Assembly: GCA_963730445.1 (NCBI GenBank)
Contig: CAVSRX010000006.1
Coordinates: forward strand, 26,082 to 90,081
Direction of reading: 5' to 3'
Length of the DNA: 64,000 nt
From: Vicinamibacterales bacterium
Lineage (GTDB): Bacteria > Acidobacteriota > Vicinamibacteria > Vicinamibacterales > JAMQPK01
Below, piece after piece: positions 46,358 through 62,209 of this stretch. The notes below the pieces were generated by a model. The model did not search any database. It worked only from the letters and a program-made list of their open reading frames with translations, and was not told where the DNA came from. Both the position numbers and the translations under genes were made by a program. Numbering within the stretch: position 1 is the stretch's first letter; every line of letters begins with the position of its first letter.

Positions 46358-47398
46358 GCATGAAAACACGACAATCGTTCCTGTGTCTTTGCCTCGCACT
46401 TTCTCCCGCCGTGATTGCCGGGCAGACAGTGCAGCCGGAAATGACTGAGTTCATTTTCGAGTCCGCCCCGTTCGCCAGCGCGCACGCGTCCACGATCGTC
46501 GAGACGCGCGAGGGGCTGGCGGCGGCCTGGTTTGGCGGCACGCGCGAAGGCGCGAGCGACGTGGGCATCTGGTTGTCGCGCCGCGTCGCGGGAAAGTGGA
46601 CCGCTCCCGTCGAAGTCGCGACGGGCGTGAATGATTGACGCGCGGTTCCCGACGTGGAATCCGGTTCTGTTCGAGCTGCGAAAAGGAGAGCTGGCGCTCT
46701 TTTATAAAGTCGGCCCTAATCCTCGCGAATGGTGGGGCATGGTGCGTACGTCGGAAGACGAGGGTCGAACGTGGAGCGGTCTGCGACAGCTGCCCGAGGG
46801 AATCCTCGGCCCGATCAAGAACAAGCCCGTGCGACTTGCGGACGGAACCATCATCGCGCCGAGCAGCACGGAAACTCCGCAGACGCCGAGCACGTGGCGC
46901 ATCCACTTCGAGCGCTCACGTGACAACGGCAAGACATGGAGCGTGTCGCGTCCGCCGGCCAGCGCCGGCGCCGCTCCCATTGATGCCATTCAGCCGAGCA
47001 TCCTCATGCACAGCGGCGGCCGCTTGCAGGCGATCGGCCGCACGCGCTCGGGCCGCGTGTTCGAGACCTGGTCTGCCGATGGCGGGCAAACGTGGACGCC
47101 GGTGACGCTCACGGAGCTGCCCAACCCGAGCGCCGGCACCGATGCCGTCACGTTGAGGGACGGCCGGCACCTTCTTGTTTACAATCACACGCCAAAGGGG
47201 CGCACGCCTCTGAACGTCGCGCTCACGCGCGACGGAAAGACGTGGGAAACCGTGCACGTGCTCGAAAGCGAGCCCGGAGAATATTCCTATCCGGCGATTA
47301 TTCAAACCGCCGATGGTCTCGTGCACATCACGTACACATGGAAGCGCCAGCGCATCAAGCACGTCGTCATCGATCCGGCGAAGCTGAAGAATCGGTAG
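46354..47398 (+). CDS. BNR/Asp-box sialidase-like glycoside hydrolase; one frameshift near 46630
   Basis: ATGA overlap. MSMKTRQSFLCLCLALSPAVIAGQ..ASAHASTIVETREGLAAAWFGG (ORF 46267 frame) joins ORF 46631..47398 (SEDEGRTWS, SRDNGKTWS, SADGGQTWT, TRDGKTWE Asp-boxes). Confidence 0.75.
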
Positions 47399-47418
47399 TG
47401 TCCGGCTTCAGCCGGACC
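47396..47418 (+). promoter_or_regulatory. conserved small hairpin motif, copy 1 (TAGT, 7-bp stem, TTCA, stem, C)
   Basis: TAGT GTCCGGC TTCA GCCGGAC C. The TAG is the sialidase stop. The hairpin ends 21 nt before ATG 47439, with GAGGAG in between. Confidence 0.6.
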
Positions 47419-47438: not shown

Positions 47439-47666
47439 ATGGAGCAGGTGAAGCGTCTTCAGGTATACGAAACTCCCGATGTGACCGTGACGTTCGATCC
47501 GAACCTGTGCCAGCACACCGGCATTTGTCTTCGGGGGCTTCCGAACGTGTTCGACATTCGTCACAAGCGCTGGGTGCGCCCCGAGCTTGCAAGCGCCGAT
47601 GAAGTGATCGCACAAGTCGGCCGCTGCCCGTCCGGTGCACTGCAGATTCGGAGGTCCGATGACTAA
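47439..47666 (+). CDS. divergent 4Fe-4S mono-cluster (DUF1271-like) protein
   Basis: 75 aa. VTVTFDPNLCQHTGICLRGLPNVFD..RWVRPE..VIAQVGRCPSGAL. Confidence 0.7.
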   Translation: MEQVKRLQVYETPDVTVTFDPNLCQHTGICLRGLPNVFDIRHKRWVRPELASADEVIAQVGRCPSGALQIRRSDD

Positions 47667-55185: not shown

Positions 55186-55815
55186 CTATGGTTTGGGAAT
55201 TCTCAGCGTCGCGCTGATCATCGCGCTGCCGCTCACGCCGTAGACGAGGGCCATCGGGTGGAGCAGCGCGGGGCCGATCTGGTAGGCGCCGAACCACAGG
55301 CGATCGTCGATGCGCCCTAGATATGACGCGACGCCGAGCAGCAGGACGATGACGATGCTCGTCGGTATCGGCGTGCCCTCGAAATATTTCACCTTGCCGG
55401 TCTCACTGTCGGAGAGCGCGGCGGCCGTCACGTTGAAGCGGGCGAGACGGCTGACGCCGCAGATGACGAAGTAGGTGAGGATGAGCATGTCCCATCCTCC
55501 CCGCATGCCGAGCGTGAAGCCGAGCACGGCCGGCGCGACGCCGAACGAGATGACGTCGGCCAGCGAGTCGAGATCGGCGCCGAGCACCGACTGCCGCCGG
55601 CGGTTCAGCCGCGCCACATAGCCGTCCAGCACGTCGCACACGAGCGCGAGCGGCAGCAGCAGGAAAGCCGTCCACAGGAACCGCCGGTTGTCCGCGGCGA
55701 TGTAGTCGAGGCACAGGAAGATGGCGATCGTGCCGCACGCCGCGTTGCCGATCGTCAAGGCGTCGGCGGGCGTGTAGGACCGCAGCATCGACATGTGGCG
55801 GCGCTGTGTGTTCAT
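55186..55815 (-). CDS. pssA: CDP-diacylglycerol--serine O-phosphatidyltransferase (CDP-alcohol phosphatidyltransferase family)
   Basis: ORF 55186..56010(-) trimmed to MNTQRRHMSMLRS (ATG 55815; alternative ATG 55794). DVLDGYVARLNRRRQSVLGADLDSLAD matches the D-G-x2-A-R..G-x3-D-x3-D motif. Confidence 0.85.
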   Translation of the reverse strand: MNTQRRHMSMLRSYTPADALTIGNAACGTIAIFLCLDYIAADNRRFLWTAFLLLPLALVCDVLDGYVARLNRRRQSVLGADLDSLADVISFGVAPAVLGFTLGMRGGWDMLILTYFVICGVSRLARFNVTAAALSDSETGKVKYFEGTPIPTSIVIVLLLGVASYLGRIDDRLWFGAYQIGPALLHPMALVYGVSGSAMISATLRIPKP

Positions 55816-55837
55816 AGTGTCCGCCTTTAGGCGGACC
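55815..55837 (+). promoter_or_regulatory. conserved small hairpin motif, copy 2
   Basis: TAGT GTCCGCC TTTA GGCGGAC C. Ends 22 nt before ATG 55859. Relative to copy 1 the stem differs by compensatory changes (GGC/GCC versus GCC/GGC). Confidence 0.6.
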
Positions 55838-55858
55838 CTGTTAGAGTATCTCCAATCG

Positions 55859-56280
55859 ATGAGCCGTCGCGAGCAGGCTGGAGTCATCCCCTTCCGTCGA
55901 AAGAAAGATGGCATCCAGGTCTGCCTGATTCGCAACAAGGGCCGCAAGAAGTGGAAAATTCCGAAAGGGTTTGTCGATCCTGGTGAGACGGTCGAGCAGG
56001 CGGCGCTCAAGGAAGCCTGGGAAGAGGCCGGACTGACGGGGCGCCTGGTCGGCGAGCGCGATCGGATCCTACGACTACGACAAGTGGGGATTCGATTTCA
56101 GAGTGTCTGTCTATCTTGATGGAAGTGACCGATCAGGAAGATGAGTGGGAGGAATCACGATTTCGTGAGCGCCGCTGGTCGCCGGTCGGCGAGGCGTTCG
56201 ACATGCTGAGAAAGCATCCGATCCGGCCGTTGCTCGAGGCAGCGGCGACCAAGCTCGAGAGGAGAAAGAAGCCGCGATGA
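55859..56280 (+). CDS. NUDIX hydrolase; two frameshifts (about 56055, 56115)
   Basis: MSRREQAGVIPFRRKKDGIQVCLIRNKGRKKWKIPKGFVDPGETVEQAALKEAWEEAGL (Nudix box). Own translation of the other frames: IGSYDYDKWGFDFRVSVYL, then MEVTDQEDEWEESRFRERRWSPVGEAFDMLRKHPIRPLLEAA, stop at 56278-56280. Confidence 0.7.
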
Positions 56281-60450: not shown

Positions 60451-60483
60451 GCGATGGCGGTGAGCTGTCGCCCCGTTTTGTTT

Positions 60484-61122
60484 ATGGGTGGATTGATCGA
60501 TCTTCGGACATGGAAGCGGCGCGACCACTATTTGTGGTTCCGCAACTACGCGCAGCCGTTCTTCAGCGTGACGGTTGACGTCGATGTGACCCCCGTGTGG
60601 AACAAATGCCGCAAGCCGGGGGCGCCGTCCTTCTTTCTGTCGTCTGTGTTTCCGATGTTGAAAGCCGCGAACGATGTCGAGGCGTTCCGCCTGCGCCTTC
60701 GCCCGCGTGGCGTGTGGCGCCACGATCGTGTGGCCGTCGGTCCAACCATCATGCGGCCGGATGACACATTCGGCTTCGTGCGCCTTGAGCCGGCGGCGAG
60801 CTTCGAGGAATTTTCCGCGCATAGTCGAGCGGCGATCGCGCGTGCCGCGGAGCGGAAAGCACTGGCGCCGTCTAAAAAGATCACCGACGACATCATCTTC
60901 CAGTCGGTGCTGCCGTGGCTGCGCTTCACGTCGTTCACGAACGCCTTGCCGGGTAAGGGCGACTCGATTCCACGCGTGGTGTTCGGCCAGTGCGCGCGCC
61001 AGGGCTCGCGGATGACCATGCCGGTGGCCGTCGAGGTGCACCATGCGCTCGTCGACGGTCTCGACGTGGCGCGATTCTTCGAGCGCTTCGGCGAGTACAT
61101 TCATAGTAGTGCTGACCTTTAG
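60484..61122 (+). CDS. CatA-like (chloramphenicol-type) O-acetyltransferase family protein
   Basis: In the frame of ORF 59734..61122. MGGLIDLRTWKRRDHYLWFRNYAQPFFSVTVDVDVT..FQSVLPWLRFTSFTN..MPVAVEVHHALVDGLDVARFF. An alternative ATG lies at 60454. Confidence 0.75.
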   Translation: MGGLIDLRTWKRRDHYLWFRNYAQPFFSVTVDVDVTPVWNKCRKPGAPSFFLSSVFPMLKAANDVEAFRLRLRPRGVWRHDRVAVGPTIMRPDDTFGFVRLEPAASFEEFSAHSRAAIARAAERKALAPSKKITDDIIFQSVLPWLRFTSFTNALPGKGDSIPRVVFGQCARQGSRMTMPVAVEVHHALVDGLDVARFFERFGEYIHSSADL

Positions 61123-61129
61123 GTCAGCC
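61107..61129 (+). promoter_or_regulatory. conserved small hairpin motif, copy 3
   Basis: TAGT GCTGACC TTTA GGTCAGC C. The stop TAG of the acetyltransferase (61120-61122) spans the loop-stem junction. Ends 23 nt before ATG 61152, with GGAGG in between. A further GGTCAGCC repeat follows at 61131-61138. Confidence 0.6.
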
Positions 61130-61151
61130 AGGTCAGCCTGGAGGCACACAT

Positions 61152-62209
61152 ATGAAGCGCGCATCGCTCGTGCTCGTCGCTGCGGTCTTGTGTGCCGCGT
61201 TTCCTGCCGCGCAATCGAAGACGCTCGACATCTACGTCCTCGACGTCGAAGGTGGAAACGCGACGCTGTTCGTGACGCCGTCTCGCGAATCGGTGCTGAT
61301 CGACACCGGCAACGGCGGGCCTGCGGCTGTGCGCGACGCCGATCGCATCATGGCCGCCGTCAAGGACGCAGGGCTCGCGCAGATTGATGCGCTCGTGACG
61401 TCGCACTGGCACGGCGATCACATGGGCGCGATGGCCGAGCTGGCGAGCCGTATCCCGATTCGCCACTACCTCGATCACGGCGGCAACGTGCAGCCGGCAG
61501 CCGCGATCGACGCGTTTCTGAAGGACACCTATCCCGGGCTGTTCGCGAAATCGAAGCACACGGTCGTGAAAGCAGGTGAGACGGCTGCCGCTGAAGGGTG
61601 TCGAGTGGCGTTTCGTCACGTCGGCCCGCGAGAGCATCAGGAATCCGCTGCCCGGTGCGGGCCGCCCGAATCCGCACTGCGCGGGATTCAAGCCGCACGA
61701 CGGTGAATCCGGTGTCGGGCCAGCCGGTCGGCAACACCGAAGACGAGCACTCAGTCGGCTCGCACGTGACCTTCGGCAAATTCCGCGCGCTGTATCTCGC
61801 CGATTTTCCGTGGAACAAAGAGTTCGAGCTGATGTGCCCCACCAATCGTCTGGGGACGGTCGAGTTTCTCCTGGTGTCGCGCCACGGCCAGCACAGCTCG
61901 AATTCCGAAGCACTGGTGCACGCGTTGCGGCCGCGCGTGGCGGTCATCAACAACGGCATCCGCAAGGGCGGACAGCCCGAGACGATGCGGGTGCTGTATT
62001 CGAGTCCGGGGTTGGAAGATATCTGGCAGGGTCACGTCGCGCAGCTGAGCGGGCCGGAGCATGCCATCCCCGGAATTTTCGTCAGCAATATCGTCGACGA
62101 TCCGCAGCACAGCCCGGCGTATTGGATTAAGGTGTCGGCGCAGTCGGACGGTTCGTTTACGGTGACGAACAGCCGCAACGGGTTCAGCAAGACTTACTCC
62201 CCGCCCTGA
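61152..62209 (+). CDS. MBL-fold metallo-hydrolase (ComEC-type beta-lactamase domain), exported; two frameshifts (about 61575, 61700)
   Basis: LDIYVLDVEGGNATLFVTP..VLIDTGNGG..DALVTSHWHGDHMGAM (ORF 61152). RLPLKGVEWRFVTSA (ORF 61576 frame). GSHVTFGKFRALYLADF..EFLLVSRHGQHSSNS..VAVINNG (ORF 61598..62209). Confidence 0.7.

Follow-up and report, generated by a model that had tools for sequence, protein, structure and literature searches.

What kind of element recurs as three small hairpins in a 64,000-nucleotide stretch of the genome of a Vicinamibacterales bacterium (contig CAVSRX010000006.1, positions 26,082 to 90,081; 'the window' below means the whole of this stretch)? Each hairpin has a TAGT flank, a stem of seven base pairs and a TTYA loop, and each ends 21–23 nt upstream of an ATG. 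A sequence-only reading of the window had taken them for a small cis-acting RNA element at cistron boundaries, selected for its structure and held at a set distance from start codons, and had listed a 'REP-like element' among the candidates for its identity. It is this candidate that fits. The three hairpins are very probably ordinary members of a family of about 200 repetitive extragenic palindromes (REPs) of the GTAG type in this uncultured soil acidobacterium, spread by REP-associated tyrosine transposases (RAYTs). The sequence features by which GTAG REPs and REP-RAYT loci (REPtrons) are recognised are all present in the genome; the arrangement that marks REPINs, mostly inverted pairs with a short spacer, is not.

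A genome-wide family with a GTAG head

Within the window, the pattern TAGT-N7-TTYA-N7-C occurs three times, against 0.05 occurrences expected from shuffled sequences, and the three hairpins can be read there on the plus strand with perfectly complementary stems. The same descriptor, allowing up to one stem mismatch, finds 128 sites in the source assembly (G000; 5.10 Mb, 63.6% G+C, 21 contigs, 87% complete), nearly all belonging to one family in which the base preceding TAGT is almost always G. The same head emerges from hairpins in general. Among the 2462 perfect hairpins in the genome with a 7-bp stem and a 4-nt loop, GTAG occupies positions -5 to -2 in 189, compared with at most 38 for the next-best 4-mer and 4–6 for control heads of the same composition, and the dominant loops of these hairpins are TTCA and TTTA. 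The conserved TAGT flank is therefore a partial view of the element: TAGT is present in all three window copies, but the family head is GTAG, one base longer. It is intact in copies 1 and 3, and copy 2 has ATAG, with one mismatch.

The catalogue of the family contains 202 non-overlapping copies. The REP unit is about 30 nt long: the GTAG head and a single base that varies by class are followed by a 7-bp G...C stem whose two arms enclose a TTYA loop. Its information profile is conserved from about -6 to +27, as ..CG-GTAG-(T/G/C)-G-NNNNN-C-TT-Y-A-G-NNNNN-C-C, with the GTAG head almost invariant; the profile has no conservation farther out and no T tract. This last feature bears on the possibility that the hairpins are factor-independent terminators or attenuators, a role that would suit GC-rich 7-bp hairpins often found just past stop codons. 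No T-run follows any of the three window copies, however, a scan for sigma-70 promoters and terminators around copy 2 found nothing, and many copies in the genome sit between tight co-directional genes, directly before the ribosome-binding site. Termination is hardly credible as an explanation, and the sequence-only reading had rightly set these hairpins apart from canonical intrinsic terminators. A reading of the hairpins as operators was rejected alongside it.

Complementarity of the stems was assessed with a structure-blind anchor, GTAGNGN5CTTNAGN5C, which contains the invariant bases only, so that the test is non-circular. The anchor matches the genome 204 times, against four matches for the reversed pattern. 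All five inner pairs are perfect in 180 of the 204 matches; re-dealing the 3' arms among the copies gives 23 on average and no more than 38 in 2000 trials. Compensatory stem change, first proposed from the three window copies, is thus real at the level of the family. Stems are perfect and without an internal bulge in 88% of copies, and 17 distinct perfect stems occur, with 2–4 Watson–Crick pair types at each inner position. Copies within a subfamily are not independent, so the number of independent stem changes is at most about 16. The covariation reflects some 17 hairpin subfamilies tracking different RAYT lineages. The stem cells that are not Watson–Crick pairs (33 in all) include eight G:T and eleven A:C, an A:C cell being G:T on the opposite strand; since G:T is not above A:C, the mismatches give no hint that one RNA strand is under selection.

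Most copies (139 of the 202), including all three in the window, are singletons. The dimers comprise 20 inverted pairs with spacers of 2–84 nt, every one of them with GTAG inside ('-+' 20, '+-' 0), and 13 tandem pairs. Doublets are a minority, and it is in this respect that the family departs from REPINs. The GTCCGSC classes have 32 forward and 31 reverse copies genome-wide. The shared strand of the three window hairpins, to which the sequence-only reading had drawn attention, is a correct observation but, with three copies, an uninformative one. Twelve REPs of the GCGCAAC and GCTCAAC classes have a palindromic TTAA loop and carry the head at both ends (GTAGnG..TTAA..CnCTAC); examples lie at G000:C5:50686-50715 and on contigs C9, C12 and C14. 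These REPs are fully symmetric and are detected on both strands.

RAYT genes among matching palindromes

A PF01797 search of the genome identified three RAYT genes (Table 1), all of which score above the 80-bit equivalog cut-off of the NCBIfam model NF047646, 'REP-associated tyrosine transposase'. An IS200 profile matches the three weakly, at 28–31 bits, under its equivalog cut-off of 55 bits. The best match of known structure is 4ER8, the TnpAREP of E. coli, with PDHLHLL aligned with the HUH motif and KYIVANPV with the tyrosine motif. Inverted REPs bracket each of the three genes in a REPtron layout; the RAYT gene on contig C14, for example, has GTAGTGTCCGCC.. upstream and ..GCTGGACACTAC and ..GCCGGACACTAC downstream. 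RAYT-A and RAYT-B are 83.5% identical and both lie amid stems of the GTCCGSC type, to which copies 1 and 2 belong, and RAYT-C, 56–60% identical to the other two, lies amid GCTCAAC/GCTCGAC stems. The REPs also impinge on the reading frames of these genes. The TAA stop codon of RAYT-A is the loop of the first REP downstream, and the RAYT-B frame (L002 1090-1821; contig C8, minus strand) extends through two downstream REPs to give an open reading frame (ORF) of 243 aa, compared with about 161 aa.

Similar associations are found in other genomes. A RAYT of another Vicinamibacterales metagenome-assembled genome (MAG; locus L065) is flanked by GCCGACC/GCTGACC stems, the class of copy 3. Among 80 RAYT loci of other Acidobacteriota MAGs, 32 have inverted flanks of the form GTAG-hairpin-TTYA, with stems that vary by lineage.

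The bracketing of RAYT genes also helps to evaluate a second alternative, in which the palindromes are DNA-level architectural sites of the host, bound by gyrase, a nucleoid protein or a palindrome-binding regulator independently of any transposase. E. coli REP and BIME elements bind gyrase and IHF (PMC3733652), and a palindromic, dispersed, intergenic element that has no strand bias relative to genes or GC skew is what such a site might look like. However, the nearly invariant GTAG head is asymmetric, the RAYT genes are bracketed by REPs of the matching class, and congeneric genomes range from 0 to 211 copies, at sites that are polymorphic for insertion. Head, bracketing and variable copy number fit mobile DNA better than a host site, and an architectural function is very improbable as the basis of the family, though the two readings could coexist.

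Empty sites in related genomes

Of 18 other genomes of the genus, 15 carry exact copies of the GTCCGSC classes, at 1–211 per genome and with forward and reverse copies about equal; none was found in a sample of 12 genomes from the order's other families. Each of the three window copies is insertion-polymorphic, with clean empty sites in relatives. These empty orthologous sites argue that the three copies are insertions and not conserved regulatory sites. The relatives are 75–86% identical at the three loci, so the exact insertion targets cannot be read.

Copy 1 lies at the junction between a gene for a BNR repeat-like domain protein and a small Fer4_19 (divergent 4Fe-4S) gene. The site is empty in relatives G033, G018 and G001, where the junction reads ..AAGAAC TGA GGnCAnn ATG.., with about 10 nt from stop to start, and where the Fer4_19 start is kept. 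The corresponding junction in G000 is ..AAGAAT CGG TAG TGTCCGGCTTCAGCCGGACC GCGAAGTC GAGGAGTGCAAC ATG, and relative G002 has at this site a REP with GTAGG and a TTTA loop. As the sequence-only reading had seen, the TAG of copy 1 is the stop codon of the upstream gene; it ends the BNR-domain gene at 47396-47398 and is contributed by the REP. Copy 1 does not support the idea that TAG stop codons serve as insertion targets: the gene stops at TGA in the empty sites, and the TAG came with the REP.

Copy 2 sits in a divergent spacer, between a CDP-alcohol phosphatidyltransferase gene and a NUDIX-domain gene. Its T55815 doubles as a base of the phosphatidyltransferase start codon (CAT, 55813-55815), which, read along the minus strand, lies 3 nt past the hairpin. 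The spacer is empty in eight genomes, where it is 22–26 nt long and has the form caT-(A/G)n-CTG(T/C)TAGAGTA..-atg; in G000 the REP directly follows caT. In G033 and G018 a GTCCGGC-class REP stands seven bases farther along, and in G001 there is a decayed REP. That neither the stem class nor the point of insertion is shared suggests that REPs entered this spacer twice, independently, with a change in situ as a possible alternative. Several of the empty sites already hold caTAG, which hints that RAYT insertion may occur beside TAG-like targets.

The CAT start of the phosphatidyltransferase gene is kept in 11 of the 12 genomes aligned at the copy 2 site, and TG-N-TAGAGT(A) is kept in all 12, whether the site is filled or empty. 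The latter motif lies upstream of the NUDIX ATG (TG-N-TAGAGT at 55839-55847). Its TAGAGT is TACTCT when read from the opposite strand and, in the empty sites, is 7 nt from the minus-strand ATG. This conservation suggests that TAGAGT/TACTCT may be overlapping -10 boxes for two near-leaderless divergent genes. If so, copy 2 would lie upstream of the NUDIX transcription start, having been pushed between the phosphatidyltransferase -10 box and its start. A simple sigma-70 scan detected no promoter here.

Copy 3 occupies a highly variable spacer between a chloramphenicol-acetyltransferase-like (CAT-like) gene and a gene for a protein with a metallo-beta-lactamase (MBL) fold. REPs of the copy 3 class are found there in G002 and G001, REPs of other classes and in the other orientation in G033, G018 and G032, and in some relatives there is no REP or there is an extra gene of about 500 nt. 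The MBL start is kept in the relatives. In G000 the REP encodes the C-terminus of the CAT-like protein (..SSADL*) together with its stop codon, 61120-61122, which spans the loop-stem junction as previously described; the protein ends ..YIHSSADL* within the REP, compared with ..L(D/E)R(G/A)* in relatives.

Three further observations concern this junction. A tandem duplicate of the copy 3 3' arm stands immediately before the TGGAGG that precedes the MBL gene (Table 1), and a similar GGTCAGCC follows the REP of G033 at the same place. In G018 (contig C19, L037) the spacer contains at least three identical tandem GTCCGGC REPs with a period of 28 nt, plus a fourth with an altered head, so the family also forms head-to-tail arrays. 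The extra gene (L030, L032, L035, L037-L039) encodes a small membrane protein starting MLPTMTINYLAVL... and is absent from G000, G002, G001, G006, G014 and G003; its patchy presence indicates that the REPs mark a rearrangement-prone junction.

Gene context of the three window copies

Genes with Pfam support (Table 1) begin at the ATGs at 47439, 55859 and 61152, which align with the starts of relatives and are thus real start codons. The Pfam assignments of the genes that flank the three copies indicate functions unrelated to each other. A GGAG-type ribosome-binding site before the ATG had been reported for each copy. It is found after copy 1 (GAGGAG) and copy 3 (TGGAGG), but the 21 nt between copy 2 and the NUDIX ATG, CTGTTAGAGTATCTCCAATCG, are without GGAG. 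Two of the downstream genes are irregular. The NUDIX ORF, with just 86 aa, spans about half the Pfam domain, and the MBL-fold gene looks split, with overlapping ORFs at 61152-61706 and 61655-62209. Frameshifts or assembly errors may be responsible in both cases.

Table 1. Hairpin copies and neighbouring genes in the window (window coordinates), and RAYT genes of the source assembly (contig coordinates)
Feature	Position	Strand	Sequence or profile match
REP copy 1	47395..47418	+	GTAG-T-GTCCGGC-TTCA-GCCGGAC-C; 47396-47418 is TAGTGTCCGGCTTCAGCCGGACC
REP copy 2	55814..55837	+	ATAG-T-GTCCGCC-TTTA-GGCGGAC-C; 55815-55837 is TAGTGTCCGCCTTTAGGCGGACC
REP copy 3	61106..61129	+	GTAG-T-GCTGACC-TTTA-GGTCAGC-C; 61107-61129 is TAGTGCTGACCTTTAGGTCAGCC
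Tandem duplicate of copy 3 3' arm	61130..61138	+	AGGTCAGCC, second instance of 61121-61129
BNR repeat-like domain gene, upstream of copy 1	46631..47398	+	Pfam PF13088, 262.8 bits
Small Fer4_19 (divergent 4Fe-4S) gene, downstream of copy 1	47439..47666	+	Pfam PF06902, 79.9 bits
CDP-alcohol phosphatidyltransferase gene	55186..55815	-	Pfam PF01066, 67.2 bits
NUDIX-domain gene, downstream of copy 2	55859..56119	+	Pfam PF00293, 56.6 bits
CAT-like gene, upstream of copy 3	60454..61122	+	Pfam PF00302, 96.6 bits
MBL-fold gene, downstream of copy 3	61152..61706	+	Pfam PF00753, 47.6 bits
RAYT gene	G000:C14:139549-140034	+	NF047646, 108.8 bits
RAYT gene	G000:C8:176727-177218	-	NF047646, 108.2 bits
RAYT gene	G000:C2:534531-535022	+	NF047646, 98.4 bits

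Position and orientation relative to genes

Across the genome, 77% of REP bases lie outside predicted coding sequence, compared with 18% of the genome that is non-coding. The gene contexts are unidirectional for 115 copies, convergent for 35 and divergent for 16, convergent and divergent spacers being equally common genome-wide. Orientation relative to the flanking genes is near random, with 61 '++' and 54 '--' copies. The head TAG serves as the stop codon of the upstream gene in 13 cases, and a TAA or TGA in the loop does so in seven antisense cases. Stops are closer to the copies than starts are: for unidirectional singletons, the median distance is 28 nt to the stop and 41 nt to the start in sense orientation, and 5 nt and 55 nt in antisense orientation. 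Against a null model in which each copy is placed at random within its own spacer, stop proximity is clearly enriched for singletons in both orientations and for antisense copies overall, but not for sense copies overall (33 compared with 27.7 expected, p = 0.07). Some 15 copies are buried in long predicted ORFs with high scores, such as the 844-aa ORF on contig C1 that contains two of them near 222040-222105; they could be truly intragenic or could reflect the fusion of gene calls.

The spacing to a downstream start is spread over 7–31 nt in one tally; for sense copies it covers 1–31 nt and runs on to kilobases, with no peak at 21–23 nt. The spacing of the window copies is therefore not a property of the family. 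The three copies have a similar distance to the ATG because the spacers into which the REPs inserted were very short. The 21–23 nt are the remainder of the spacer from the point of insertion to the start: the ribosome-binding-site region in the case of copies 1 and 3 and TG-N-TAGAGT in the case of copy 2.

The near-random orientation and the spread of distances are difficult to accommodate if the hairpins are cis-acting RNA elements for processing, stability or protein binding at cistron boundaries, selected to lie about 20 nt before starts. So are the copies in convergent spacers, the absence of all three window copies from orthologous sites whose genes and starts are intact, the lack of preference for G:T mismatches, and the unrelated functions of the flanking genes. 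Copy 2 has no ribosome-binding site, stands upstream of a -10-like motif and may lie outside the NUDIX mRNA, and an Rfam search of the whole window at gathering thresholds matched no family. Other observations would suit an RNA element. The hairpin is predicted to form as RNA in all three contexts, many REPs have been argued to be transcribed (PMC3733652), and there is a slight enrichment of sense copies close to starts: 28 of the 69 that precede a gene end within 30 nt of its start, compared with 21.1 expected (p = 0.018), and these often sit just before an AGGAG-type site. Antisense copies, in which the GTAG end faces the start, are depleted at the same distance (7 compared with 17.6 expected). 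On balance, a selected RNA element is improbable as the origin of the hairpins, and this part of the sequence-only reading is not supported. Measured against the refuting outcomes that the reading had named, the result is mixed: the many copies are in near-random orientation, but compensatory change is clearly in excess and position is non-random, intergenic and stop-proximal.

The spread of REPs by RAYTs remains the preferred explanation, and some results weigh against it. A modest orientation effect, the depletion of antisense copies near starts, is not explained by simple selfish spread. It persists among singletons: seven antisense singletons lie within 30 nt of a start compared with 13.5 expected (p = 0.0006), and the proportions of sense and antisense singletons near starts differ (20/47 and 7/39, p = 0.02). 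Part of the start asymmetry is explained by the GTAG-inside dimers, because their outer ends are always hairpin bodies. Decayed inverted partners were rejected as its cause, since just 7 of 127 singletons have one, as was an artefact of the gene caller, since REPs inside over-extended 5' ends are not preferentially antisense. The gene coordinates themselves come from a crude self-trained caller (4434 genes, 82% coding). REP orientation has no association with local GC skew (odds ratio 0.89, p = 0.86), so the strand bias sometimes expected for lagging-strand transposition of single-stranded DNA is not seen; with so weak a skew (median 0.014) and an assembly in 21 contigs, this test has low power. 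Finally, the assembled 87% of the genome contains no RAYT for the GCCGACC/GCTGACC/GCTGGCC classes, which have about 50 copies including copy 3, and none for the GCAGGGC class.

The asymmetry near starts could mean that REPs are not neutral for translation starts, either because sense copies have been co-opted as intercistronic RNA elements or because RAYTs insert with a polarity tied to gene ends. We regard this as unlikely, if less so than a selected RNA element as the origin of the family. Many REP copies must be transcribed, and by analogy with other REPs it is possible that effects at the RNA level, such as protection of 3' ends, attenuation or an influence on a nearby ribosome-binding site, arise as secondary by-products.

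Proposed mechanism and related systems

By analogy with the systems of E. coli and Pseudomonas, the REPs would be non-autonomous elements that, as hairpins of single-stranded DNA, are bound by RAYTs and cut at or near GTAG. The RAYTs, which are HUH/Y1 enzymes and kin of IS200/IS605 TnpA, would thereby spread REPs into intergenic DNA. Stems that vary and yet stay complementary fit an enzyme that recognises a hairpin. Complementarity would be kept by selection for hairpin recognition and by descent from palindromic masters; each stem subfamily probably goes back to one such master, which co-varies with the RAYT lineage of that subfamily.

The subterminal hairpins of IS200/IS605 elements such as IS608 and ISDra2 are recognised as single-stranded DNA by an HUH/Y1 enzyme. 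The RAYTs described here belong to the same superfamily, with their weak IS200 matches. They differ from IS200/IS605 transposases in falling below the IS200 cut-off, and the hairpins differ in being dispersed with no transposase gene between them and in having no detected GC-skew strand bias. At the E. coli malE-malF junction, a REP stabilises the operon mRNA, as a by-product of one REP orientation at one locus. The present REPs resemble that case in placing a stable hairpin between co-directional cistrons, at times overlapping the upstream stop; unlike at malE-malF, REP orientation here is not gene-specific.

The closest parallels are with the GTAG REP/REPIN-RAYT systems of E. coli (REP/BIME with TnpAREP), Pseudomonas fluorescens and Stenotrophomonas. 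Shared features are a GC-rich palindrome of 20–40 nt with GTAG at one end and hundreds of intergenic copies; unidirectional and convergent placement, TAG stops and inverted dimers; lineage-specific families of variable copy number; and RAYTs with HUH and Tyr motifs flanked by inverted REPs, with several RAYT/REP class pairs per genome. In a survey of GTAG REPs, the head TAG was found to supply stop codons and the REPs to lie mainly between unidirectional and convergent genes (PMC3733652). The present family differs from other GTAG REPs in its Vicinamibacterales host, in its very short unit, perfect unbulged stems and strongly conserved TTYA loop, and in having a fully symmetric TTAA-loop class with the head at both ends. 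It differs from REPIN systems in that singletons predominate and in that its inverted dimers are all GTAG-inside. The 2013 survey, the one paper in the searched literature to name Acidobacteria in this context, recorded transposases flanked by terminal inverted repeats in other classes of the phylum, not REPs (PMC3733652), and that literature yielded no description of this Vicinamibacterales system.

Significance

A false lead is removed: a mobile DNA repeat had given the appearance of an RNA motif that covaries and keeps a fixed distance from start codons. In its place, a well-defined REP-RAYT system, with three enzyme paralogues and matching stem classes, is recorded in soil Acidobacteriota of the order Vicinamibacterales. 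For the annotation of MAGs, it matters that these REPs supply stop codons, remodel C-termini, as in the CAT-like gene, and mimic regulatory motifs or terminators. The coexisting pairs of RAYT and stem class also constitute a natural specificity panel for the reading of hairpins by HUH transposases.

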